Source: a virus
Taxonomy: Duplodnaviria > Heunggongvirae > Uroviricota > Caudoviricetes
Length of the DNA: 64,000 nt
Reading direction: 5' to 3' (one strand)
Virus record (IMG/VR): IMGVR_UViG_2576861193_000004
Span: 1-64,000 of that record
Positions 26,935-41,174 of this stretch are shown piece after piece (position 1 is the stretch's first letter; each line of letters starts with the position of its first letter). Position numbers and translations under genes: made by a program. The notes beneath the pieces are model-generated. The model saw only the letters and a program-made list of their open reading frames with translations, was not told the DNA's origin and searched no databases.

Positions 26935-27045
26935 CATAACTTGTCGTCTTAGACGCCCAGAAGCTCTACACTTTGAGCCTGTTAAATTGATTAAAAACTT
27001 ATGTGTAAAATAGAACGCATTAGTCAGTAGCAAAGAGATGCAATA

Positions 27046-27813
27046 ATGGACGATTTATCGGTATACGCGAGATCATTGGATAAGGCTAAATACTATGTTT
27101 ACTGTCTCTATGATACAGAAGACAAGATGAAAAGACCGTTTTACATAGGAAAAGGCAAATCGACTCGTTGTCTCGATCACATCAAGTATCCCGATGACTC
27201 TCCCAAATCCATGCGGATCAAAGAACTTTTGGCTAATAAAAAATTAGGCATAGATATACTTCGTCATGGTATGGATGAAACCACAGCCAAACTTGTTGAG
27301 GCGACATGCATCGACCTTATGGGGGTCGGAGAGCTTACGAATAAGGTACGAGGAAGTGGTTCCATGATGGGCAGAATATCACTGGACGCCTACCATCACT
27401 TAGTGCTGCAAGAGGAAACTGAAATTGCTCCTGAGCACGCCGGTCTTGCCTTCCTGCTAAACAGCACCTACAAGTCAGGAATGTCCGCTCTGGCATTATA
27501 TGAAGCTACGCGTGGCGTATGGGCAAAGGTTCCAAGAGACGAGAATCTCAAATATGCCTACGCTACATATGGTGGGCTGATAATGGAAGTTTATCAGATT
27601 GAATGCTGGGTCAAAGCCGGTTCTCAGCAGTACTTTACAAGGGATATAGCTCTTGGCCCCGACACAAAACGTTATGAATTTGTTGGCAGAATAGCCGATG
27701 AGCATATTAGAAAACTGTATGTAGGCAAATTAATCAAGAAGCCACCAAGCTACGGTAGCCCTTTTGTGAAGGTTGGGGTGGTTAGGACTGAACATAGTGT
27801 TAGCGCGGCATAA
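27046..27813 (+). CDS. GIY-YIG domain nuclease
   Basis: N-terminal YYVYCLYD...PFYIGKGKSTR (GIY-YIG core); 255 aa with uncharacterised C-terminal half. Confidence 0.7.
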   Translation: MDDLSVYARSLDKAKYYVYCLYDTEDKMKRPFYIGKGKSTRCLDHIKYPDDSPKSMRIKELLANKKLGIDILRHGMDETTAKLVEATCIDLMGVGELTNKVRGSGSMMGRISLDAYHHLVLQEETEIAPEHAGLAFLLNSTYKSGMSALALYEATRGVWAKVPRDENLKYAYATYGGLIMEVYQIECWVKAGSQQYFTRDIALGPDTKRYEFVGRIADEHIRKLYVGKLIKKPPSYGSPFVKVGVVRTEHSVSAA

Positions 27814-27829
27814 AGCTGACACTGTAGTT

Positions 27830-27867
27830 ATGCATTGGCGCAATGTACGCGCCAATGCATGATTTTT
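27830..27867. terminator. bidirectional terminator between convergent genes
   Basis: Perfect 12-bp inverted repeat ATGCATTGGCGC / GCGCCAATGCAT with 7-nt loop, followed by gattttt. Confidence 0.6.
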
Positions 27868-28225
27868 AACCTTTCTTCATCAACTCTCGTTTGATTTCAT
27901 CGGTACGCATCGTGACATCGGCAGCGGTGATCGCCTCATTCAATTTCACGATGTCCTCGATTTCCTGCGGTGACTTCTCTGCCAGATGGAAAATGGCTGC
28001 TCGAATCACGTCAGAACGAGTGAACTTCTCGAAGCGAGGGATGAACTTCATCATCTCCAGCAGTTCGAAGTATTCGTCCTCCAGTGACATTGTGCGGCTT
28101 TTAATTTTCTCTTTGCCACGAGTCGGGCGTCCCTGTGGTCTGACTGGTTGGCGCAAAGGAGTTGTGTTCTTAGCCGGTGCATCAGGCTCTTTGCGCTTTG
28201 CTAGGTCACCCATTTTCATGGACAT
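27866..28225 (-). CDS. small basic partner of ParA (ParG-like, putative centromere-binding protein)
   Basis: 119 aa, basic N-terminus; gene start abuts the parA stop. Role inferred from position. Confidence 0.4.
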   Translation of the reverse strand: MSMKMGDLAKRKEPDAPAKNTTPLRQPVRPQGRPTRGKEKIKSRTMSLEDEYFELLEMMKFIPRFEKFTRSDVIRAAIFHLAEKSPQEIEDIVKLNEAITAADVTMRTDEIKRELMKKG

Positions 28226-28893
28226 TATTCTTCTTCCTCCAGACTCAACAGATAATCTACAAATTCTTCAAACTCGGCTTCCGCCTTTTTGTCGCGCTCG
28301 CTACCGGTCATTTCAAAGATAGAACGACCAGACTCTTCCGCATCATCATAGACGTTGCGGTTATACAGATTGACTGGCGCAGACTCGATTCCAAACGTCT
28401 CAACAATCTCTTTAGCCGCCAGAATGCGAGACACTTGTGATGGCAAAGCCGGACACTGGTTCATGACCGCGCGGACCTTCACTTTATCGTTTACATTGCG
28501 AACATTGTCGATAATAGGATCGATGTCACGTAAAGATTTCAAATCACGACGCTTAGGACGCAGCGGGATAATGATAACGTCAGCCATCAGCATCGCTTGT
28601 CGCTGAATTTCGGAGTCGAAGCCACCAGCATCTACCACTACAAACTCAGCTCTACCCTGAAGCGATTTTAGGTGCTTAATGATGTCATCCTGAACGTATG
28701 CAAAAGGAATCAGCTCAAGGTCTTCGTTCTGTCGACGGTCTTCACACCAGCTCGTTGTCGTGCGCTGAATATCTATATCGGTAATATAAACCTTCTTCTT
28801 CTTTTTGACTTTCAGGCAAACGGCAATTTGCTGGGCAACGGTGGATTTGCCAGGCCCGCCCTTTGTGCCGCCAACCACAAAGATCTTGGTCAT
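28225..28893 (-). CDS. parA: ParA-family partition ATPase (small type Ib)
   Basis: Deviant Walker A KIFVVGGTKGGPGKST at N-terminus, 222 aa. Confidence 0.85.
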   Translation of the reverse strand: MTKIFVVGGTKGGPGKSTVAQQIAVCLKVKKKKKVYITDIDIQRTTTSWCEDRRQNEDLELIPFAYVQDDIIKHLKSLQGRAEFVVVDAGGFDSEIQRQAMLMADVIIIPLRPKRRDLKSLRDIDPIIDNVRNVNDKVKVRAVMNQCPALPSQVSRILAAKEIVETFGIESAPVNLYNRNVYDDAEESGRSIFEMTGSERDKKAEAEFEEFVDYLLSLEEEE

Positions 28894-29211
28894 TGGAGAG
28901 TTCCCTTTGCGTATATAATTATCGTCTGAAACAACTTGTTTTCTTATATGTGATATAGCCTAAATGCCTACGGCTGCGGTGTAAAGGTTAAATGGTAGGT
29001 TGTGATTAACAATTGGCAATCATAGCTTGTATTTGTCTGTTGAAAAAAGTAACAATGACCTCTATATTACAAGTACGGTGATATGCCGTACACAATTTGA
29101 TAATGCACACGTAATGGGCTATAGCCTTTTAAAGTAATTTTTGAGTCGAAAACTCAGTTTGAACAGAGGAGATTGATGGCCTTCCTACATCACGGCCATC
29201 AGGAGGAATAC

Positions 29212-29481
29212 ATGTCAGCACTAAAAAAGCAGCGCATCGATTTGAGATTAACCGATGACGATAAAAGCATCATCGAGGAAGCTGCCGCAATGTCTAACCA
29301 GAGCATTACTCAGTTTATGGTTAGCAGTGCATCTGAACGTGCCGTGAAAGTTATAGAGCAACACCGTAGACTAGTTCTGAATGAAGAATCCTGGAATCTG
29401 GTTATGGACGCTATAAGCAATCCTCCGGCACCGAACGACAAGCTGAAACGAGCTGCTGATCGTCTGAAAAGCATGGAGTAG
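29212..29481 (+). CDS. DUF1778 (TacA/AtaR-family) antitoxin
   Basis: 90 aa MSALKKQRIDLRLTDDDKSIIEEAAA...NPPAPNDKLKRAA; AGGAGG Shine-Dalgarno 6 nt upstream of ATG 29212 (track start 29173 is TTG). Confidence 0.85.
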   Translation: MSALKKQRIDLRLTDDDKSIIEEAAAMSNQSITQFMVSSASERAVKVIEQHRRLVLNEESWNLVMDAISNPPAPNDKLKRAADRLKSME

Positions 29482-29488
29482 TTTACTC

Positions 29489-30010
29489 GTGAGCAATACA
29501 ACGATAGAGATTTTCTCTGGAGAGAAAGATTATGATCTAAACGGTTTTGATTGCGGCGAAGAGTCACTAAACGCCTTTTTAGCCAACCACTTAAAAAGGC
29601 AGCATGAGGGAAAAATTCTTCGTGCTTATGTGCTTTGCACTCAAGAAGAAAGGCCAAAAGTGTTAGGATATTACACTTTGTCAGGTAGTTGTTTTGAAAA
29701 GGAGTCCTTACCTTCAAGAAGCAAACAAAAGAAGGTTCCTTATCGGAATGTTCCAAGTGTTACTTTGGGTAGGCTGGCTTTGGACAAGTCCCTTCAAGGT
29801 CAAGGATTTGGCTCAATGCTTGTAACACATGCAATGCGCGTTGTGTACAATGCATCTCTTGCTGTAGGCATTCATGGACTTTTCGTTGAGGCGTTAAATG
29901 ACAAAGCCAAGGCGTTTTATAAAAGTTTAGGCTTTATCCAGCTGGTTGGTAACAACGAGCGTTCTTTGTTCTATCCTACAAAATCTATCGAAAAATTGTT
30001 CGAAGAATAA
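29489..30010 (+). CDS. GNAT-family acetyltransferase toxin (TacT/AtaT-like)
   Basis: 173 aa, GNAT motif A LQGQGFGSMLV; starts 8 nt after the antitoxin stop. Family members acetylate aminoacyl-tRNA. Confidence 0.85.
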   Translation: MSNTTIEIFSGEKDYDLNGFDCGEESLNAFLANHLKRQHEGKILRAYVLCTQEERPKVLGYYTLSGSCFEKESLPSRSKQKKVPYRNVPSVTLGRLALDKSLQGQGFGSMLVTHAMRVVYNASLAVGIHGLFVEALNDKAKAFYKSLGFIQLVGNNERSLFYPTKSIEKLFEE

Positions 30011-30042
30011 TGTGTTCCCCTCATTTGAGGGGAACTTCGACA

Positions 30043-30258
30043 TCACCAACCACAAACCCTCTCTCCCATCGTATTGTGAAAAAGGATTTGGCGTTCGGTT
30101 TCTTCAGTCATTACATCATTATTGCTGATATAGATAGGCTCAGCCCCATCGCAGAACAACACGCTGGCTGTTTGTGGTTTAATGACGCACCCACTTATCA
30201 TACAACTCACGATGAACGGCAGAAGCATCTTTCTGACGTATTTTACTGCTCGTCTCAT
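30043..30258 (-). CDS. Rz1-like outer-membrane lipoprotein spanin candidate (overlapped in Rz)
   Basis: Signal-peptide-like MLLPFIVSCMISGC with lipobox-like ISGC; overlaps the 3' end of the Rz-like gene in another frame. Confidence 0.35.
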   Translation of the reverse strand: MRRAVKYVRKMLLPFIVSCMISGCVIKPQTASVLFCDGAEPIYISNNDVMTEETERQILFHNTMGERVCGW

Positions 30259-30430
30259 TCACCACTTTCACTGTGTTTTGAAGTCGTTTTCTGTCTTCCT
30301 GTTTTGCCTTCTCTTCCATTGCTCGTCGCGCCGCATTCCCGCCCATCGTGTAAGCGCCGACAAGAACGAAAAGAACGGCAGCCAGCGTAATCAAAGCAAC
30401 TTTTAGCTTTGTCATCAGGCTGCCTAGCAT
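30179..30430 (-). CDS. Rz-like inner-membrane spanin candidate
   Basis: 83 aa: N-terminal TM (VALITLAAVLFVLVGAY) followed by charged helical region; located downstream of the putative lysin. Confidence 0.45.
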   Translation of the reverse strand: MLGSLMTKLKVALITLAAVLFVLVGAYTMGGNAARRAMEEKAKQEDRKRLQNTVKVVNETSSKIRQKDASAVHRELYDKWVRH

Positions 30431-30431
30431 A

Positions 30432-31151
30432 TTAGACCATCCCTTTCTGGTGTTTTCTTACCTGCGACCAGGCAATGAATCCTGCCACAACAATAGTGGC
30501 AATACCGAAGATGATGCGTACTGTATCCCCGCTAGAGATATGACCTTGTGCTTTATCCATAGCAGCGGAAACCTGCGGCATAACATCGGCCAGCTGCGCC
30601 AGACCAATACCTGCTGTAACAGTTGCGCCTGCGGTTTCTTTAGTTACAGGAACAGCCTTCACGGTTTTCACCGGCTTAACAACGCCAGCTCGACGCAGAC
30701 CTTCCTCAATAACTTCTGCCGCATACCAGGTGTTCAGCGTTTTTAGCGGGCCTCGGCCATTCTCGTGGCGAATGATTGCCTCAACCAAAGGTCGAAGGAT
30801 GTCGTAATCATGCAGATCGATGATCATGTCTGCGGTTACACCAACGGCTTTAGACACCTCATTAATGTAGGCGTCAGTATTGTTTTCATTCGGCGGTGCC
30901 CAGCGTTCAATAACTTCACGAATGGTATCGATACTTGTGCCGTCTTTTGCGCGACGTTTATCGTGGTAGGTAATTAGAGTCACCGCCAGCGCACGAATCC
31001 CCCAAACAGGGTCTTTAAACGTGCAAAAGCGCGGTTCGTCTGGATTCGCAACCAGACCTTGCCACGGTGATCCTTTATCAAGATTACCGGGGTTATTATT
31101 ACGAATGCCTCTCGGAGTTTTCATCCTTGATCTCCTGTTATTGCAGTCCAC
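30432..31151 (-). CDS. putative cell-wall hydrolase / endolysin with C-terminal transmembrane helix
   Basis: 239 aa with GIRNNNPGNL motif near the N-terminus and C-terminal hydrophobic segment IIFGIATIVVAGFIAW; assignment rests mainly on position between holin-like and spanin-like genes. Confidence 0.35.
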   Translation of the reverse strand: MDCNNRRSRMKTPRGIRNNNPGNLDKGSPWQGLVANPDEPRFCTFKDPVWGIRALAVTLITYHDKRRAKDGTSIDTIREVIERWAPPNENNTDAYINEVSKAVGVTADMIIDLHDYDILRPLVEAIIRHENGRGPLKTLNTWYAAEVIEEGLRRAGVVKPVKTVKAVPVTKETAGATVTAGIGLAQLADVMPQVSAAMDKAQGHISSGDTVRIIFGIATIVVAGFIAWSQVRKHQKGMV

Positions 31152-31473
31152 TTTTTACGCCATACGCGGCTAACCCCAAAAGCAGTGCGGTAATAATGAA
31201 CGACGTTATTTTAGAAACAATGCCGCCAAAGAACCCACTGGAGATGGTGTCGAGCCGGTTAAGAAGTTTGTCCAGATTGGAGTGCTGAATGCTGTGTTGT
31301 GCGGGCGTCATATCGCCAAAGTAGGTTTTGAGCTGGTCATTGACCTCCTGACCAATTTCCTCGCGTATTTCTTTACCTAATTTGCCTACGACTTCCCGAG
31401 CAACGATTGAGGCGATGCGCTCAACCTGTTCAGTTGTGACTCCCGCCATCTCGTTCGACATGTTTTCCTCCAT
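31138..31473 (-). CDS. tail-anchored membrane protein (holin candidate)
   Basis: 111 aa, hydrophilic N-terminus and single C-terminal TM (ITSFIITALLLGLAAYGV); first gene of the lysis cluster. Confidence 0.3.
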   Translation of the reverse strand: MEENMSNEMAGVTTEQVERIASIVAREVVGKLGKEIREEIGQEVNDQLKTYFGDMTPAQHSIQHSNLDKLLNRLDTISSGFFGGIVSKITSFIITALLLGLAAYGVKSGLQ

Positions 31474-31594: not shown

Positions 31595-32176
31595 TTACTC
31601 TGCTGGTATTGTTGGCCACTCAATATCAGGTGCAGTTGATGTATCAACACGGTTCAGCAACACCCGATACTTTTTCCAGGCTTCCAGCAATGAGTTTTCT
31701 TCCTCCGTTGCGATTTCCAGATCTACAGCATCCTGAAGTGGCGCAATATGCTCACTGGCTACCTGCATCAGGTTGTTTTTTGTTTCTTCCGCCTCCCGGA
31801 TCCGGAACAGTTTTTCTGCTTCCGTATCCTTCAACCAGGCTGTGCCGTTCCACTTCTGATATTCCCCTTCCGGCGATAACCAGGTAACATTTTCCGGTAA
31901 CGGACCGAGTTCAGAAATAAATAACGCGTCGCCGGAAGCCACGTCATAAACCGTTTTACCCCGATGATCTTCAACGAGATGCCACGATGACTCATCACTG
32001 TTGAAAACAGCCACGAAGCCAGCCGGAATATCTGGCGGTGCAATATCGGTACTGTTTGCAGGCAGACCTGTATGAGGTGGAATATATGCGTCACCGTCAC
32101 CAATAAATTCATTAGTTCCGGACAACAGATTATAAATTTTTATGGTCCGTGCTTGTTCACTCATTCTGAATGCCAT
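31595..32176 (-). CDS. tfa: tail fiber assembly protein (Tfa, lambda Tfa / T4 gp38-like)
   Basis: 193 aa; start overlaps the stop of the fiber gene; typical Tfa layout and sequence character. Confidence 0.8.
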
Positions 32177-35100
32177 TATGCAAGCCTCACAATATAGTTA
32201 AATGCGATGTTTTTGACGGTGTTTTCCGCGTTACCAGCAGCGTTAACGGTGATGGTGTGTCCATGTGAGCCAATCGCAACCGAGTGCGTATGCGCACCAA
32301 TACCTACAGTATGTGCATGTGCGCCAGAACTTGCTGCAGTACCAGACAGCGAGTGGGTATGAGCACCTGCTGACTGTGTCTGAATACGTTGATAATACGA
32401 TCTACTGGAAGAAGTCCCCGGGCTTACTTGATACTGTGAATCCTGGACATAAGTGAACCCACCGCCATCATAAAATGCTAACGCAGAACCGCCGCCTCCT
32501 GGCCAACGAATACCATTACCATGAGTATGAGCACCGGCAGCCCCCGTAGAGCCACTCAGACTGTGCGTATGCGCCCCGGTGTTATTCGTGGATTTAGTGC
32601 CGTAATCAAACGACGATGTGGTTTTCGTCCCCAAATCCGTACTGGATGCGCTGGCGCTGTGGGTGTGCGATTTAATGCCGTCCTGTTCCTGAGACAATAC
32701 GGCGCGACCACTGGCAGGTTTGCCCTTAATCGTCCAGCCACGCATATCAGGGATCACGCCTGACGGATAAGCGGCTGCAAGTTTCGGGTAAGCAGATTTG
32801 TCAAAAGTCTGCCCCTGCATCAGGGCATAGCCAGACGGAACGGTATCTGATGGCCACGGGATTGGTGCACCGACTGGATAAAACTCTGCAGGAGGATGAG
32901 CCGAGGTGTAAAGCTGCGCCCACGGCGACCAGTTTGCGTCGGTCGTATCCCGTCGTGAACGAATAAATGCCGGAGCATGAGCACCGCTTGTACCACTCCA
33001 GCCAATTAGCAACTCTCCCTCACCAGCAACTCTCGCACCTTTCATGTGCAATACGTTGCCATACGTGGTCGGGTAGCTATTGTTGTACGCCTCGTACATT
33101 TGAATGCCAGCAGTGCCTTGAGTAGAGCCGCTTAACGCCGTAACTTGGCCACGAGATACCAATGTATTAATGTTGATATCGCCTGAGCCATCAAACTTAA
33201 CACCATTGATGTTTCTCGCTGTTTGCAACTTCGTAGCTGTTGAAGCATTACCGTTCAAACTACCATTTACGCCACCAGTCACATTTAGTCCATTACCGAT
33301 CGTAACAGCACCATTGGCATTGTTAATGATAAGCGGCCTTAAACTATTCCATGATCCAAGATTGTCACCCGAGGCGGTCAACATGAAGTATGTGTTTGAA
33401 CCATCGTTTCGGATAAAGAATCCGTAGTTTCCGCAGACAATGCGCAGACCATTCGCCGATTTTGAAATGATCTCACCAGAAGATGTCAAACCTCCAGATA
33501 ATGTACCACCGGTAAGAGGTAATGCACCGACATCAGAGGCTGTTGGTTTGTTTTTCGTGTTATATACTCTTCGCCATCCTGGAGAATAATCTGTGCCATT
33601 AAATACATAGATAAACTCCGCATTAGTGAGAGCACCAGAGACACTCGTCGTTGTGGCCGTTGTTATACGGATCGTATAATTGTTTGAGCTACTACCGTTA
33701 TTAAATACCTCTATAACAGCTCCTGCCAATGGAATAACGCCACAACCAGTTTCACTATTTGGTATGGTTGCACTATTGGCATAGGCCCACGCACATCGAG
33801 CAATCCATGACCTTGTGGTAAACGCGCCGTTATTTTGCAATAACGTCACTAACTGTGCTGTTGTTATTGCTCCGCCATTACTTCCTGTAGTTAACCAACC
33901 AGTAGGAGATGCCGGGCAACCTATATCGGCAGGCCCCAACGATATATTTCTTGTGCCATCAAACGCAATACCGTTGATGGTTCTTGCGGTTTGCAACTTC
34001 GTAGCAGTAGCCGCGTTGCCCGTTGTATTCTGATTACCAGTCGTATTAACACCTGGCAAATTAATATTCGCAGTACCATCAAAGCTCACGCCGCCGATAG
34101 TTCTTGCCGTCTGAAGTTTTGTAGCAGTTGCAGCATTACCAGTGGTGTTCTGATTACCCGTAGTATTTACACCTGGAAGGTTGATATTTGCAGAACCGTC
34201 GAAACCAACTCCACCGATAGATCTTGCCGTCTGCAATTTCGTTGCTGTACTTGCATTACCATTTAATGTTCCGGTGATCCCACCAGTAACAGACAACGGA
34301 CCTGAAACTGTTCCTCCGGTTGTTGGCAGTGCACCAATATCTAACGGCGTCGGTTTCTTATGTGTGCTATACATCGTATAAACAACACCATCGGTAACGC
34401 TGGAAGGCTTACTCGCTGAATATGTTGGCGATGTATAAATAGAAACTGTCGCATTTGCAGTACAATCCCAATGGATATTTACACTAGTCGCATAATTGCC
34501 AATCTCAACGTAAATATCATATGTATCGCCGGATGTGTTGATCCAGGCGAAATTCGTTAATCCGACGGCTGTACGCTTCCACAAAGCCCCGGTAATTCCT
34601 TTGGGCATTCCATTGCCTGCTCGTAGAACCAGTTCTGAAATGCCTGCCTGTTGAGGTGACCCCACGTTAAATCCCGCGCCACCAATCAATGCGATGTAAA
34701 CGATGGAACTATTTTGTGGCATGGTAACCGTAGCCAGTTTGAACCACCCAGCCCCGCCAGAGAAAGACATCGTTATTGAATTTAAAGTACCAATATCTTT
34801 CGGCGTTAATGTGATATCCGCAGTCAGTGCTTTCCCGTTAATTTTTCGGTTAGATGGCACCCTGCTGTTCGCATTGTCATTGACTACTTTAACTGCTTTT
34901 GGCGTTGCGGCCAGCGATTCACTGGTGCTGTCGACAGCACTGCTAAGTTTCACAACACCTTTAGTTGTAAGGCTTGCGTCTTCCATCGCAACTGCACCGG
35001 CAATCTCTTCAGCACGATCAGCAGCAGCTTCCGCACGGGTCGCAGCGGATTCAGCAGCAGTTTTGCTCTGAGATGCTGCCGTCGCACTGCCAGCTGCCTC

Positions 35101-36348
35101 TGTCGCCTTCGTGGATGCCGTCGTGGCGCTGCTCTTCGCTGCTGACGCCTGTCTGGTCGCCTCATCTTTTGAAGCAGACGCCGATGATGCCGATGACGCC
35201 GCCGAACTGGCGGACGATGCGGCTGCCGTTTTTGAGGATTCTGCACGGGTTTCCGACGCTTTCGCGTTCGTTTCGGATGTCTTCGCTGCGGAAGCAGACC
35301 TCGCTGCTGCGCTGGCCTGTTCAGTGGCTTGGCCAGCCTTCGTTGTGGCAGTTGAAGCAGACGATGCGGCACTTTCTGCCGATTTTCCGGCGGCGGTGGC
35401 ACTGGCTGAGGCCTGCCCGGCACTTGTTGACGCGGCACTGGCAGACGACGCAGCCGCTGTTTTTGAGCCTGCCGCAGCCGAGGCGCTCTGTCCCGCTGCC
35501 GTTTCAGAAGACCTGGCGTTCGTCTCGGACGTTTTTGCCGCCTTCGCGGAATTTCCTGCCGCCGTTGCCGAGGAAGCGGCATTACTGGCGCTCGAGGCTG
35601 CGCTCGTTTCTGATGATTTCGCTGCCTCTTTTGAGGCCGCCGCATCCCGGGCTGAGGTGGCAGCTTCTGACGCCTTCGTGGTCGCGGTGGATGCAGAAGT
35701 GGCTGCAGATTTTTGTGACGCTGCAGCATTCGTTTCAGATTTTTTCGCATCAGTTGCACTCGCACTTGCGGCACTTTGTGAGGATGCCGCAGCGGATGCA
35801 CTTTGAGACGCTTGAGAGGCTTTTTCTCCAGCGGCATTGGCGCTTTTTGCTGCTGCGGCAGCACTGGCCGCCGCCTCACGAGCTTTGTCGCCAGCAGCAT
35901 CAATCGCGTCAGTGTTATTTTTATACCACTCAACGTTTTCGTTGTGCTCGTTGACGATCTGCATTAGCGGCTTAACGGTCACTTCTGTACCGTCTTCACG
36001 CTCGATTGTCACCTCATCCAGCGCAGTCAACCAACTGCGTATGGACTTGGAATCAGCCGACATACGCGACATTAGCGCAGTAAAGCGCGCGCTAAACTGT
36101 GTTAAGTCGCCTTCATAGGTCGTAATGATTCGGCACGGAACTTCAGACTGAGTTTCGCCGGTATAAGGTTCTGAGAGAACAATGTTCGTATCACTGGTTA
36201 CGCGCTTGATCTCATACAGCTTATTGTCGGGGCCAATGACGATCATCCCCGGCAACACACCATTAGCTGTTACGTTCCAGGCTGTCCCTGCCCCAACCAG
36301 AGTATTGCTGCCCTGTGTAAATGTGATAGTACCTTCCCTGTACCACAT
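32176..36348 (-). CDS. stf: side tail fiber protein (Stf-like) with Ala/Ser-rich rod and Phage_fiber_2-type repeats
   Basis: 1390 aa; repeated units [40 protein letters not shown]; C-terminal His-rich GAHTHS repeats typical of T4 gp37 / lambda Stf distal regions. Confidence 0.85.
33930..34330. repeat. tandem DNA repeats (about 111 bp units) encoding fiber repeat motifs
   Basis: Three near-identical consecutive units visible in the DNA within the fiber gene. Confidence 0.7.
34990..35900. repeat. low-complexity GC-rich region encoding the Ala/Ser/Thr-rich fiber segment
   Basis: All six frames are open here (spurious ORFs 34950..35933, 34974..35954, 35111..35806) because of biased GCN/TCN codon composition. 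Confidence 0.8.
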
Positions 36349-36440: not shown

Positions 36441-39400
36441 TCACAGACGGCCAATTCTTACTCGTAAGACGTTGTTATCGTCATAAACGTCAATCCGCTG
36501 ACCATTTATAACCAATCGCCCATTGCCGCCGCTATTACCGTTGATCTCCAGCGTTCCATTTTTGCCGAACCGCCATCCAGATCTACCGCTAACAAAATTG
36601 GTAGATTGCAGATCGCCTACTTTTGCATTGGTGATTGTGCCATCCTTGATATACGCTCCATTCATATAGGCGATACTGTTTTCGATAACAAATGGCGTTG
36701 TGATCTTCCCGTTAACAGAGTTGACCAAACCAAACCTGTCCGCCTGAACCAAAAACTGAGATAGCCCAGTGGTGTCAATACCAAGCGCAATACCGGCAAC
36801 ATACTTCTGCCCTCCGCTCGTTGAAGTCTCCATTTTCAACGTCCACGCGGTTGATACTTTTTTGTTGGTATCAGCAATAGCTGTTGCCTGCTGTTGAATT
36901 GTCGCGGTATTTCCATCCACCTCTGCTTTCAGAGTATCGATTCGCCCACTCAGAGCATTATCTGCCTGCGTTCTCGCTGTCGTTTCAGTTGTTACCGCCG
37001 CGGAAATGTTGGCTGCCGTTTGAGACTCTAAGTTTGTGATTTGAGTCGCCAATGCAGCATCTTGCTCTGTACGCGTTTTCGTTTCGGTTGCTACAGCCGC
37101 TTTAATATCCTCTTTGTATTGAGAGGTCAGCTTGGTGATCTGAGACGACAACGCCGAGTCAGCATCAGTTCGAGCCTGCGTTTCAACTGCAACGGCCGCA
37201 CTAATATCTTTCGCTGTCTGTGCTTTTAAACTTGAAACCTCTTTTGTTAAAGCGGTATCACCATCTGCACGAGCCGTTGTTTCTCTGGCAAGAGACGCCT
37301 CGAGATCATTAGCTTTTGCTGTAAGAGACGTAATCTGGGTAGACAATGCACTATCGGCATCAGTCCTTGCTTTTGTCTCTACAGCAACCGCTGCGGCAAT
37401 ATCAGTTCCGGTTTGTGCTCGCAGGCTGTTAATTTCTCGTGAGAGCGCCTGGTCAGCACTTGCCCTGGCCTCCTGCTCCTGAGTGATGGCAGCGGATATA
37501 TCACCGTCAACCTTTGACTGAAGCTGGTTTATTTGTTTGGCTAACGCAGAGTCCCCGCTTGCTCGAGCCTCCTGCTCACTACGTATTGCAGCAGAAATAT
37601 CATCATCAACCTTTGCCTGAAGTTGGGTGATCTGGCTTGCCAGAGCCGAATCTTCCGTTGCTCGGGCTTCTTGCTCTTCCTTAATAGCTGCGACGATATC
37701 GTTGCTTACTTTCGACTCAAGCTGAGTGATCTGTGTCGTCAGAGCTTCATCGGCAGATGTACGAGCCTCCTGCTCTGTACTAATCGCCGCGCTGATATCT
37801 CCTTCAAACTTAGATTGCAGCTGAGTGACACGCTTTGCCAACGCTTCATCGCCATCGGCACGAGCGGTGGACTCTTCCAGAATACTGGCCTTAATGTCTT
37901 CGCCAATTTCTACGCGAATTTCCTCAACCTTCGTGGCCATTGCAGACATATCATCAGCAAAGGTTTTCTGTGTTGTTGCGATCTTCGCGTTATTGACCAT
38001 CTGCTTGTGCTGGTCTTCATCTTGACGAAGAGCCAGGTCAATATTTGTTTTGGCTAACGCCTCAATGTTCGTAGTCAGTTCTGCACTGGCACGATCGACC
38101 TCTGCAACCGTCTTTTTCATTTCTTCAACGGCAGCGGAGCTTTCCTCTACCGTTGACTGCAACACTTCCAGTTGTTTAGCGTTTGCAGCATCGCCTTCAA
38201 CACGAGCCTCGCTTTCCTTAGCAATAAGAGCCGCCGCTTCATCTCTTGCAGCCTTTATTGCCTCGACTGTATTAGCGAGAGCTTTATCGTGTTCAGATAC
38301 GGTGTTTTCGATTTCAACAATTGCAGCATCAGTAGCATCAATTTTTTCAAACGCTTCATTGACCTTGTCGATCGTTGCCGAAACCTCACCTTTAAGCTCG
38401 GTTTGTGCGTTCTCCAAAGCATCGCTACGCTCGTTGAATTTTATTTCAAAATCCGCGAGGTTATCGCTGAACTGCTTATCTAATTCAGCTATATCTTCCT
38501 TAACGTCGTTTACCGACCCCTCCAAAGATTCGACGCTCTGGTTGATATGCTCATTTAACTCGTCAACTGCTTCTTGAGAGGCTTTGCTGTTGATGTCCTC
38601 AAGCAGAGCCTGACCAAGCTCGGAAGATGTAATTTTGCCAGTCAGGAACGACAGTACATCGCGAGTTGTCGCCTCTGTACCCAAGTTTGAGTTCGGAGGA
38701 CTTAACATACCTCGCTTGTTCGATGCTCGAACCCAGTAATACCACGTTTCGCTATCCCCAAGACCAGCATGTGTAAAGGTGGTGCTTGCAGACTCTGCGA
38801 TCAGTTTCGCCGTATCCAGATTGTTGGTCTGGGATGCGTAAACATTAATGTGATCAAGGTCTACCGAATCTGGATTAACCCAATTCAGTATCACATTACG
38901 ATAGTCTCCAACGGCCGTTAATGACGTTGGGGAATCCGGCGGTGTCATTGTGCCCAACACCTGATAAACGGTACTGATAATCTCTGTTTTTTTACCGTTG
39001 AATGAAACCGCATACAGCTGGAAGTCGTAGCGTCCATTCTCCGCGACATTAACGATTTCGTATTGCTCTTCGGTTACACGCGCCGATTGCCAGTTCGATA
39101 CATTGTTTTCATCAGAACGTCGCCAACTGATCCAATACTCTGGAGATTTCCCTTCCCATGTTGCAGTCAGTTTTACTGACAGGTTGCCAGGGCTTGAGAG
39201 ATAAGTCCCTTCGGTGATTTGCAAATTAGACGGCTTGGAGTAAGTCGGGTCCAATACCGTCGTATTCTGCGGGATAAGCGTTGCACCATTGTCGATTGCC
39301 TCATATTTAGACGGATTGTTCTCAACAGCGGTGATGTCAAAGCTACCCGGCGTTTCCCCCTGCGCGATGTTAACGATGCGAACGCGCATAGGTTCGAGAT

Positions 39401-41174
39401 CTGGTTCTGTAATAGTCCAGACGCCGTTCAAAACAGGCGTTTCAGCCGAAGACAGGGATTTTGAAAACGTAACTTTTGTTATATTTTCGCCAGTTTCAAG
39501 AACATCGCGTTCAACGATTTTGCCTTCATGATTCAGTATTCGAATAAAGCAGCCGCCTTTGGCTAACGACACCGGCGCATCGAGTGTGACGCTGTTTTTG
39601 GTAAACGCCACAATTCGACCTGAGTTACGTTTGCCTGCGCGATATTTGTTCTGAATCAGAACGGTTTCACCAGGCATCAGAAATGACGCGTCTAAGCCGG
39701 CAGTAAATGTAATTACATCCGACTCCATTCTGGCGGTATATAAAAGCCACAAACCAACTCGGTGAGCCTGCCCTCGGCTTGTACAGCCAAATGCTACGAC
39801 TTCTGTCTTACGCTCACCATAACGGCGCATTGCGTCCTGATCTTCAACGTACTCGATGTTTTGCTTATAACCGTCCTCCTTGTTGTTGTAGGTTACGAGC
39901 GCAACGGATGGGCGATCTTTACGCGCAGAACCTTTATAGGTAAACAATCCATCTTTGACGTTAGAGTTGGTAAACATCATTACCGGATCTGATGGGCTAT
40001 CCTGCATGATGTTAACCATGCCACCAGCCCAAAACACCATACCGCGGAATGCACCGGCAATATCCTGAATTAGTCGGTATGCGTCCTGTCGACTGGTGAT
40101 CTGCGTATTGATTGCAAAGCGTTTCTCTTTGCCACCAAAGCCATCATCGACCTCTTCGTCACAATATCGACCAATCTGGTACAACTGGCCAAGGTCAATC
40201 ATAGATTCCGACACATACTGACCAAGGCCATATCGAGCATTGGTCAGCAAATCAAAGAGAATCCACGCGGGGTTCGAAGAAGACAACAGCTTAAAAGTGC
40301 CATCCCATACCCCAGCGTAAGTGTTACTGGACTCGTTATAGTTTGAAGGTACTCGAATTTTTAGGCCACGCACCAGATAAGAGCGAGATGGCATGGTGCT
40401 GCCGAATTGCTCAGAGTTTACCTTCAATCCAACTAAAACAGAGTTTGGATAGTTCATCGGTGTATCGACAATTTCCCCGATTGAATCCACCCATGTATCG
40501 TTATAGAGATACTGGCTACTGTTATCATCGGTAATACGGACTACACGAACCTTGTATGCGCGTCCAGGCTTAGGCAGCTTCAGCTCGTAGCTACGGTAAT
40601 AAACGCCGGTCTTCTTTGCTGTTAGCTTAATGCCAACGCTTTTTTCACCTTCCGCGACCACATCTACAAATGTTGAGTCGCCATTTGCTATCTGGAACTT
40701 GTACTCAACAGTCGTACCGTTCGTGTCACCAGTTTTTTTATCTATGCTTCGCAAAGAAGGAAACTTCATGATGACACGAACCCGATCAGCTTCATCGTTA
40801 TCGATTGAAACCGTTACATAATGTGTTTTTTTTAACTGGATATTGACGGATTTAGGCGTTTCAACGAAATCAAAGCCAGACATTGGAGTCTGGTCTTGTG
40901 AACCGTCGCGAAAATCCCATGTGATTCCGCTGAAGTTGGAGGAACCGTCTTCATTTACAATCGGCAGATCGTCGATAAAAATAGATCTTGCGCCATTTAC
41001 TAAGCCGCCAATTACCCCTTCCCCAAGAAGATCGAGGATAGCGGCCATTGCACGAGAATTTACGGTATCGTCGGCTTCAACCGGTGTACGGCTGGAGCTT
41101 TTGCTGCTTTTTTTACCACCCGCACCGGCAATAAACAGCGGTAGCTTTTTCTTCTTGAACTGTTCCATGTTCAA
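36441..41174 (-). CDS. central tail fiber / host specificity protein (lambda gpJ-like) with embedded coiled-coil repeat rod
   Basis: 1577 aa; N-terminus resembles lambda J; about 13 tandem 32-aa repeats (ISAAI..EQEAR...D.AL..QI.QL.SKV). Confidence 0.85.
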   Translation of the reverse strand: MNMEQFKKKKLPLFIAGAGGKKSSKSSSRTPVEADDTVNSRAMAAILDLLGEGVIGGLVNGARSIFIDDLPIVNEDGSSNFSGITWDFRDGSQDQTPMSGFDFVETPKSVNIQLKKTHYVTVSIDNDEADRVRVIMKFPSLRSIDKKTGDTNGTTVEYKFQIANGDSTFVDVVAEGEKSVGIKLTAKKTGVYYRSYELKLPKPGRAYKVRVVRITDDNSSQYLYNDTWVDSIGEIVDTPMNYPNSVLVGLKVNSEQFGSTMPSRSYLVRGLKIRVPSNYNESSNTYAGVWDGTFKLLSSSNPAWILFDLLTNARYGLGQYVSESMIDLGQLYQIGRYCDEEVDDGFGGKEKRFAINTQITSRQDAYRLIQDIAGAFRGMVFWAGGMVNIMQDSPSDPVMMFTNSNVKDGLFTYKGSARKDRPSVALVTYNNKEDGYKQNIEYVEDQDAMRRYGERKTEVVAFGCTSRGQAHRVGLWLLYTARMESDVITFTAGLDASFLMPGETVLIQNKYRAGKRNSGRIVAFTKNSVTLDAPVSLAKGGCFIRILNHEGKIVERDVLETGENITKVTFSKSLSSAETPVLNGVWTITEPDLEPMRVRIVNIAQGETPGSFDITAVENNPSKYEAIDNGATLIPQNTTVLDPTYSKPSNLQITEGTYLSSPGNLSVKLTATWEGKSPEYWISWRRSDENNVSNWQSARVTEEQYEIVNVAENGRYDFQLYAVSFNGKKTEIISTVYQVLGTMTPPDSPTSLTAVGDYRNVILNWVNPDSVDLDHINVYASQTNNLDTAKLIAESASTTFTHAGLGDSETWYYWVRASNKRGMLSPPNSNLGTEATTRDVLSFLTGKITSSELGQALLEDINSKASQEAVDELNEHINQSVESLEGSVNDVKEDIAELDKQFSDNLADFEIKFNERSDALENAQTELKGEVSATIDKVNEAFEKIDATDAAIVEIENTVSEHDKALANTVEAIKAARDEAAALIAKESEARVEGDAANAKQLEVLQSTVEESSAAVEEMKKTVAEVDRASAELTTNIEALAKTNIDLALRQDEDQHKQMVNNAKIATTQKTFADDMSAMATKVEEIRVEIGEDIKASILEESTARADGDEALAKRVTQLQSKFEGDISAAISTEQEARTSADEALTTQITQLESKVSNDIVAAIKEEQEARATEDSALASQITQLQAKVDDDISAAIRSEQEARASGDSALAKQINQLQSKVDGDISAAITQEQEARASADQALSREINSLRAQTGTDIAAAVAVETKARTDADSALSTQITSLTAKANDLEASLARETTARADGDTALTKEVSSLKAQTAKDISAAVAVETQARTDADSALSSQITKLTSQYKEDIKAAVATETKTRTEQDAALATQITNLESQTAANISAAVTTETTARTQADNALSGRIDTLKAEVDGNTATIQQQATAIADTNKKVSTAWTLKMETSTSGGQKYVAGIALGIDTTGLSQFLVQADRFGLVNSVNGKITTPFVIENSIAYMNGAYIKDGTITNAKVGDLQSTNFVSGRSGWRFGKNGTLEINGNSGGNGRLVINGQRIDVYDDNNVLRVRIGRL
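36950..37900. repeat. tandem about 96-bp repeats encoding the coiled-coil heptad repeats of the J-like protein
   Basis: Periodic recurrence of near-identical DNA segments; generates spurious antisense ORFs (37041.., 37623.., 38050..). Confidence 0.7.

Follow-up and report, generated by a model that had tools for sequence, protein, structure and literature searches.

The energy and geometry by which noncontractile tails breach the cell envelope are an open question. F-type pyocin tails were solved in three 2026 reports (PMC12874032, PMC13455828, bioRxiv 10.64898/2026.02.24.707460). In the F7 pyocin, the central fiber protein (CFP), a homolog of J, contains a 163-residue trimeric coiled coil that refolds into a β-prism to drive puncture, a switch reported only in that year, and mutations that block the β form abolish killing (PMC12874032). 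A motif, SxSxxMxxLxS, in which acidic M positions are paired with Arg at i±4, has been proposed to fit both folds, and AlphaFold predicts both states in 21 of 24 related phage fibers (He et al., PMC12874032). The resolved F2-pyocin shaft (residues 907–1084) is a trimeric coiled coil that contains a stutter (bioRxiv 10.64898/2026.02.24.707460), and F-pyocin side fibers use an N-terminal domain to dock where the shaft has an acidic kink (PMC12874032, PMC13455828). The C-terminal 350 residues of phage T1 gp33 are unresolved, and its fiber as predicted by AlphaFold 3 is ∼37 nm long (PMC11945409). Here we describe ten tandem 33-residue units in the J-like central fiber protein of a widespread type of Escherichia coli phage-plasmid, encoded on the minus strand of the window, by which we mean the whole stretch of 64,000 nucleotides that was analyzed (positions 1 to 64,000 of the IMG/VR virus record IMGVR_UViG_2576861193_000004). 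The shaft that contains these units is an unusually regular, modular addition to the recently characterized class of central fiber shafts; neither repeats nor SSU5, the phage for which this type of phage-plasmid is named here, comes up in the main text of He et al. (PMC12874032).

Ten tandem 33-residue units in the central fiber protein

The J-like tip attachment or central fiber gene lies at 36441–41174 on the minus strand and encodes 1577 amino acids from the TTG start given by the open reading frame (ORF) finder. The ATG of database records (41168; MEQFKKK...) is 6 nt downstream of this TTG (window 41168–41174), so that the true length is probably 1575 amino acids; residue numbers used here equal the database number plus 2. 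The parts of the gene that matter for the argument are the following.

38667–41174, minus strand: conserved J hub (residues 1–836), comprising hub domains, FNIII-A, Phage-tail_3 and fn3, from Pfam and alignments to J-like structures in the PDB
38013–38666, minus strand: proximal helical shaft (residues 837–1054), non- or weakly repetitive with a hydrophobic periodicity of ∼3.56, as predicted by AlphaFold2 (AF2) and from the spectrum
38142–38240, minus strand: isolated degenerate copy of the 33-residue unit (residues 979–1011), matched by hidden Markov model (HMM) at 14–18 bits
37977–38054, minus strand: most conserved island of the shaft (residues 1041–1055, AKTNIDLALRQDEDQ), then a predicted helix break (residues 1051–1066), from a conservation of 0.95 among relatives and AF2
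36912–37898, minus strand: ten tandem 33-residue units (residues 1093–1421), from self-comparison, unit HMM, predicted helix and periodicity
37404–37601, minus strand: units 4 and 5, the site of observed in-register gain and loss, with hybrids u5/u4 (11 copies) and u4/u5 (9 copies)
37209–37304, minus strand: unit 7, the sole 32-residue unit, with a one-residue deletion at its start, from the register layout of the units
36444–36911, minus strand: C-terminal β tip domain (residues 1422–1577), with Phage_Tail_Tip at residues 1425–1559 (Pfam, E = 1.4e-41), also from AF2 and Foldseek

Comparison of the protein with itself over residues 1000–1460 gives a peak of 36.8% identity at an offset of 33 residues and harmonics of this peak at 66 and 99, and an HMM of the unit scores every tandem copy at 46–60 bits (independent E-values of 1e-14 to 1e-19). 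The unit consensus is DISAAIxxETxARAxADxALxxQITxLxSKxxx, in which seven positions are invariant (A4, E9, R13, D17, A19, L20 and L27). An initial annotation had recognized a tandem protein repeat at nearly the same place (36950–37900) but had counted about 13 copies; a more sensitive HMM built from 148 diverse units adds to the ten tandem units merely the one degenerate isolated copy, which it places at residues 981–1009, and a marginal fragment at residues 963–975.

The periodicity of the DNA is real, but its period is 99 bp (33 residues) and not the 96 bp (32 residues) first proposed. Identity at offset 99 is 53.2%, compared with 29.2 ± 1.5% in codon shuffles (z = 15.5), whereas identity at offset 96 is 30.8%, i.e. 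background, and only unit 7 has 32 residues. Tandem Repeats Finder reports the same 99-bp period with just 2.1 copies because the units are too divergent, and HMMs at the protein level are therefore needed to delimit them. Pairwise identity between units averages 48% for protein (range 28–73%) and 53% for DNA (maximum 65%), and the longest exact in-register DNA word common to two units is 14 bp, which does not agree with their earlier description as near-identical. The one-residue deletion at the start of unit 7 must shift the local register of the rod by one residue. This unit also has a sequence flavor of its own (LEASLARETTARADGDTALTKEV...), which is kept in relatives with 7–11 units and absent from versions with 4–6 units.

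In the hydrophobicity spectrum, the tract has its maximum at 3.65 residues (power 108), corresponding to nine periods per 33 residues, and the power at 3.5 residues is 3.2. The spacing is therefore hendecad-like and not based on heptads, as had been supposed; a 33-residue period cannot contain an integer number of heptads. The repeats also have a strong period-2 hydrophobic component that is much weaker in the upstream helix. No internal sequence repeat of 11 or 22 residues was found within the unit, and Pfam has no family for it, returning just sub-threshold matches to generic coiled-coil families such as SF-assemblin. Long plus-strand ORFs opposite the tract (37623–38057 and 38050–38577) were treated as by-products of biased codon content.

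Comparison with pyocin, T1 and lambda central fibers

The first ∼860 residues of the protein match the F2-pyocin fiber (E = 2.7e-154), T1 gp33 (E = 1e-131) and lambda gpJ (8iyk_J, E = 4.9e-124, aligned over residues 21–863), and the solved J-like proteins stop aligning at about residues 861–867. Pfam places FNIII-A_GpJ at residues 104–238, Phage-tail_3 at 360–523, fn3 at 647–730 and Phage_Tail_Tip at 1425–1559 (PF24801, PF13550, PF00041 and PF09327). These matches bear out the initial annotation of the protein as a J-like central fiber, as does the position of the gene in the tail module, where it follows a tape measure gene and homologs of M, L, K and I (Pfam matches of the neighbors, including NlpC/P60 and JAB, and the Cyrano annotation). 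The gene is 99.6% identical to one annotated as ‘tail host specificity protein J’ in Escherichia phage Cyrano, an SSU5-like phage-plasmid carried by E. coli LF82 as pLF82; the J protein is not discussed in the paper on Cyrano (PMC9928086). Judged by homology, the window protein is the lambda-J-like tip protein of an SSU5/Cyrano-type phage-plasmid.

Beyond the hub, two AF2 monomer models (mean predicted local distance difference test score, pLDDT, of 65 and 69) predict a long helical segment between the FN3 domains and the β tip, as in F-type pyocins. Helix is predicted over residues 837–1054, 1064–1350 and 1357–1409 (the latter two as segments 1064–1239, 1226–1350 and 1357–1409), running continuously through the unit boundaries, with pLDDT of 60–89 across the predicted helices and 74–89 over units 1–4. 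The sole break predicted upstream of the repeats is a non-helical stretch with pLDDT below 50 at residues 1051–1066; a further short break is predicted at residues 1351–1356. β-strands begin at approximately residue 1412 and run into the C-terminal domain, the last unit leading directly into them. On these models, the repeats would form the distal part of a helical shaft of ∼585 residues between the J hub and the lambda-J-like β tip domain. At the usual helical rise of ∼0.148 nm per residue, the entire shaft would be about 85 nm long, of which the ten units would make up about 49 nm, or about 4.9 nm each. The extended helical rod anticipated in the initial annotation is thus supported by the continuous helix in the AF2 models and by the presence of a homologous unit inside a resolved trimeric coiled coil of the F2 pyocin (see below), and by analogy with J homologs we infer that the shaft is itself a trimeric coiled coil. 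Indels of exactly 7 and 11 residues distinguish relatives in the proximal shaft (residues ∼883 and ∼901); because a coiled coil keeps its register through insertions or deletions of just these two sizes, they are independent support for a coiled coil.

The shaft is homologous to those of the pyocins and T1. Residues 882–1193 of the F2-pyocin CFP (PA0641, PDB 25vf, chain 25vf_A) align to residues 1242–1549 of the window protein (E = 1e-24), and T1 gp33 (PDB 9L9P) aligns to the shaft and tip (E = 5.5e-30) with recognizable 33-residue units. When the unit profile is compared with the whole PDB, three chains only are matched: T1 gp33, residues 1034–1062 of the F2-pyocin CFP, which lie inside the resolved coiled coil (residues 907–1084), and 9ze4. 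Unit positions 9 and 13 fall on E1039 and R1043 in the alignment to F2, the same residue numbers as the core salt bridge at an M position in F7 (PMC12874032). A relaxed form of SxSxxMxxLxS, our own reading of the published motif, matches 36 times in residues 861–1421 compared with 9.9 ± 3.1 in shuffles (3.6-fold), at fixed phases in every unit. The F-type pyocin CFPs (F7 and F2) therefore resemble the window protein in the order J-like hub, helical shaft and β tip domain, in having at least one canonical 33-residue unit, the E-x-x-x-R salt-bridge pattern and an SxSxxMxxLxS-type motif, and in a side fiber with a related N-terminal anchor, to which the window side fiber is weakly similar (residues 2–109 against residues 3–106 of the F2-pyocin side fiber, 25ve_A; phmmer, E = 3e-4). 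They differ in that the pyocin shafts have 163–178 residues and degenerate units, whereas the window shaft has ∼585 residues and ten clear units, and in that an F-pyocin is a tailocin whereas the window system would be a DNA-containing phage-plasmid virion. T1 gp33 shares the J-like hub, the same tip domain and 3–4 copies of the 33-residue unit, but has fewer units and belongs to a virulent phage of the Drexlerviridae.

Lambda gpJ (8iyk, 8xcj) has a homologous hub, a Phage_Tail_Tip β domain and the same gene order of tape measure, M, L, K, I, J and side fiber. However, its hub (to approximately residue 837) passes straight into the β domain (residues 839–971) with no helical shaft, so that the window protein has ∼585 extra helical residues, as predicted, at this point. 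Foldseek matches the C-terminal domain to the lambda gpJ central fiber (8xcj and 8xci; E = 1e-5 for 8xcj) and to the SU10 tip fiber. The tip domain has a fixed length of 156 residues among relatives. There is no lambda-type C-terminal receptor-binding domain in the window protein, which ends 18 residues past the PF09327 match; the LamB-binding domain of lambda gpJ (residues 972–1132) has no counterpart.

The island AKTNIDLALRQDEDQ is kept even in a relative of 44% identity. This acidic island and the predicted helix break that follows it (residues 1041–1066) are a candidate for the kink on which the side fiber docks, and with a docking site at this position the repeats would sit distal to the side-fiber junction. 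A phmmer placement of the pyocin Asp-rich docking site on unit 7 was set aside as unreliable because the query is repetitive.

Copy number varies by whole units among relatives

In 120 clusters of close homologs, the tandem tract has 4, 5, 6, 7, 8, 9 or 10 units with the same 156-residue C-terminus throughout, and the range extends from 4 to 11 units once complete plasmids are included. Pairs of otherwise nearly identical proteins differ by gaps of exactly one, two or three units: 66 residues between the window protein and P0003 (99.5% identity) and between the window protein and P0004 (95.9%), 99 residues between the window protein and P0005 (97.1%), and 33 residues between P0023 and P0117 (99.4%) and between P0007 and P0008 (96.9%). 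At the DNA level, the window gene and the eight-unit P0003 gene (locus L001) share 98.2% identity, and the latter has lost 198 bp in one clean deletion. In P0005, units 6–10 are identical to those of the window protein and the proximal units have diverged, giving a mosaic pattern. The number of repeats is therefore not invariant among relatives, a comparison that the initial annotation had proposed as its test.

DNA of the shaft and tip is found in 213 of 5426 complete E. coli genomes, exclusively on plasmids (216 matches). Plasmid pCUPF07B (NZ_CP182176.1) carries the window gene with two mismatches and a 99-bp insertion, which gives 11 units. Its extra unit is a hybrid that begins as unit 5 and finishes as unit 4, having crossed over within an 11–12-bp shared word (GAGCAGGAGGC). 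In plasmid NZ_CP081792.1, units 4 and 5 are fused, leaving nine units. Both genes come from complete plasmids; the crossover of locus L003 lies inside GAGCAGGAGGC, and the junction of locus L004 is at GAC. Among the listed complete plasmids in which the gene is at least 96.8% identical (n = 31), 29 have ten units and the remaining two have 11 in one case and nine in the other. The initial annotation was right that length changes through the gain and loss of repeats, by whole units and over a range of 4 to 11 copies, but because the units are divergent these changes occur at microhomologies of 3–12 bp and not by efficient homologous recombination. Such copy variation is evolutionary plasticity and not the behavior of a hypermutable locus. 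Streptococcal M proteins are coiled-coil rods of variable repeat length in which intragenic, in-register change of copy number alters the length of the fiber; the likeness is an analogy, as there is no homology and M proteins are dimeric heptad coils of bacteria whereas the central fiber would be a trimeric component of a viral tail. In one partial sequence from Shigella sonnei (P0006), one unit is perfectly duplicated and a deletion has brought unit 7 into direct fusion with the tip domain; the allele may be damaged or the sequence misassembled.

A proposed modular length element that probably switches fold

In our view, the tract is likely to serve as a modular length element in the central tail fiber, forming a unit-quantized helical shaft of the pyocin/T1 family that probably switches fold. 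The ten 33-residue units, each with nine hydrophobic periods (a spacing of 3.67), would make up the distal ∼49 nm of a trimeric α-helical shaft of ∼585 residues (∼85 nm). Whole units are gained and lost in register through slippage or illegitimate exchange at short microhomologies, and shaft length would step by ∼4.9 nm across related phage-plasmids with 4–11 units. By homology to the pyocins, the side fiber would dock on the part of the shaft that immediately precedes the repeats, and engagement of the receptor would cause the metastable coiled coil to refold into a compact β-prism, upon which the tail tip would open. Copy number would set both reach and stroke if the fold switch holds. Receptor reach was the meaning put forward in the initial annotation, to which the 2026 work on the homologous pyocin shaft would add stroke or stored energy as a second one. 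The receptor of SSU5 is the core of lipopolysaccharide (PMC4138488), which makes a role in reaching through a surface layer plausible but unproven as the adaptive value of length.

Several observations weigh against this proposal. The fold switch has been demonstrated solely in the F7 pyocin, and according to the same authors lambda and T5 do without one (PMC12874032). The window shaft is 3.5 times the length of a pyocin shaft, and perhaps not all ten units would switch; the F2 shaft is mainly heptad with a stutter, whereas the window units are hendecad-like. The motif pattern that we counted is relaxed relative to the published one, AF2 modeled a single chain with modest confidence and the similarity of the side-fiber anchor is weak. 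The gap of 92 bp between J and the side fiber contains no PyoF11/F12-like adhesin gene and no minus-strand ORF of at least 80 amino acids, although F-pyocins have genes of this type. Copy number is without a linked phenotype. Finally, a pseudo-palindrome within the unit, as antiparallel strands or a β meander would produce, was considered and dropped as nonspecific, with several symmetry centers scoring about equally (z ∼2.7), as for any amphipathic helix.

The restriction of the demonstrated switch to F7 is also a point in favor of a static spacer, i.e. a stable coiled-coil rod that sets the distance of the tip without refolding, with penetration occurring as in lambda or T5. A helix is predicted in both AF2 models, and whole-unit indels are what would be expected of a simple length ruler. 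We regard a static spacer as possible but rather unlikely. The units carry the motif compatible with both folds at fixed phases together with the invariant E9, R13 and D17, and they have the strong period-2 hydrophobic signal lacking upstream; the last unit leads into predicted β-strands, like the pyocin ‘seed’, and of 24 related phage fibers, 21 are predicted by He et al. to switch. A genetic role, in which the repeats serve as a recombination scaffold for swapping distal tip or receptor-binding modules and rod length is a by-product, would account for the observation that DNA similarity to SSU5 and Klebsiella relatives ends in the shaft, the C-terminal 1.4–2.1 kb having no megablast match, and for the mosaic P0005 and the presence of the unit in proteins without a J hub. 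However, no two units within the gene are exactly identical over more than 14 bp, the C-terminal 156 residues are nearly constant in close relatives that differ in copy number, and the events seen are intragenic gains and losses of units and not tip swaps, which makes such a role improbable.

Implicit in the initial annotation was a high-frequency contingency locus, in which near-identical heptad repeats phase-vary the length of the fiber within one population. Copy number does differ between genes that are otherwise 99.5–100% identical, which is a point in favor of such a locus. Nevertheless, with units that average 53% DNA identity and share no exact word longer than 14 bp, crossovers at 3–12-bp microhomologies and ten units kept in 29 of the 31 listed plasmids, we consider this explanation very improbable. 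Short-read misassembly of tandem repeats is possible in principle, but an artefact, whether the repeat arose by chance or the copy variation by collapse or expansion during assembly, is scarcely credible given the strength of the periodicity (z = 15.5), a divergence between units too great for collapse, and the occurrence of variants in plasmids assembled as complete circles as well as in clusters of up to 1980 member sequences.

Returning to the proposed fold-switching shaft, we suggest tentatively a more specific form of it, in which each 33-residue unit would be one quantum of a spring, contributing nine helical turns (∼4.9 nm) to the coiled coil and approximately one β-strand or rung (∼0.5 nm) to the prism, so that arrays would tune reach together with stroke or stored energy. 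The correspondence of one unit to about one strand comes from F7, where 163 residues form 5–6 β-strands (PMC12874032). If this were true, the 4–11-unit series of SSU5-like phage-plasmids and the arrays of up to 21 or more tandem units in other J-like proteins would tune reach and puncture stroke or stored energy, and selection by the thickness of O-antigen or capsule could drive copy number. The natural, near-identical variants with 4–11 units offer an allelic series in which shaft length could be related to adsorption reach, host range and puncture stroke. They also suggest a design rule, the addition or removal of 33-residue units, for engineering fiber length in phages and tailocins, and length polymorphism in this tract should be allowed for when SSU5-like phage-plasmids are annotated and typed.

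Distribution of the unit

A search with residues 1093–1577 against one representative per 50%-identity cluster matched 3299 clusters at E ≤ 1e-3, of which 1485 also passed E ≤ 1e-10, and the best 150 have from 0 to 26 units. The phage collection contains 1795 matching records, T1-like coliphages and Klebsiella phages among them. The initial annotation described the repeats as unusual for lambda J; this holds for lambda J itself, which is without the insert, but by homology nothing is unusual about the module when J-like proteins are taken as a whole, given its presence in T1, in F-pyocins and across the 3299 clusters. Longer arrays occur in P0121, P0136, P0140 and others, with 21 tandem copies in a J-like protein of 2138 residues, and up to 26 unit matches are found in proteins that have no J hub. 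The units of many relatives are most often spaced by 32 and not 33 residues.

The side fiber and neighboring genes

The side fiber that would dock on the shaft is encoded directly downstream of J, with its chaperone.

32176–36348, minus strand: side tail fiber gene (1390 amino acids), with Pfam matches to Gp34_trimer and Collar and a match to 2xgf
36022–36345, minus strand: N-terminal ∼109 residues of the side fiber, similar to the anchor of the F2-pyocin side fiber (phmmer; PDB 25ve_A)
31595–32176, minus strand: tail fiber assembly chaperone (Pfam Caudo_TAP, E = 8.6e-44)

The side fiber is a chimera of a pyocin-like anchor, a low-complexity region rich in Ala and Ser, a T4 gp34-type trimerization domain, a Collar domain and a gp37-like tip. 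Its C-terminus closely matches the T4 gp37 receptor-binding tip (2xgf, E = 6.5e-81) and carries His-x-His repeats, and the Ala/Ser-rich stretch (approximately residues 150–470) also generates long spurious ORFs in other frames. The corresponding module of Cyrano (L002) differs, with a fiber of 1341 amino acids followed directly by a holin gene where the window has the 1390-residue fiber and the Caudo_TAP chaperone (31595–36348), which suggests that the distal fiber and chaperone cassette has been swapped.

Genes for a plasmid lifestyle adjoin the lysis and tail modules at approximately 27000–31200 of the window, as judged by homology to Cyrano, whose counterparts in this region include ParA, RelE/ParE and KacT toxin–antitoxin genes. 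Together with the location of all 216 of 216 matches in complete E. coli genomes on plasmids, these genes fit a phage-plasmid.

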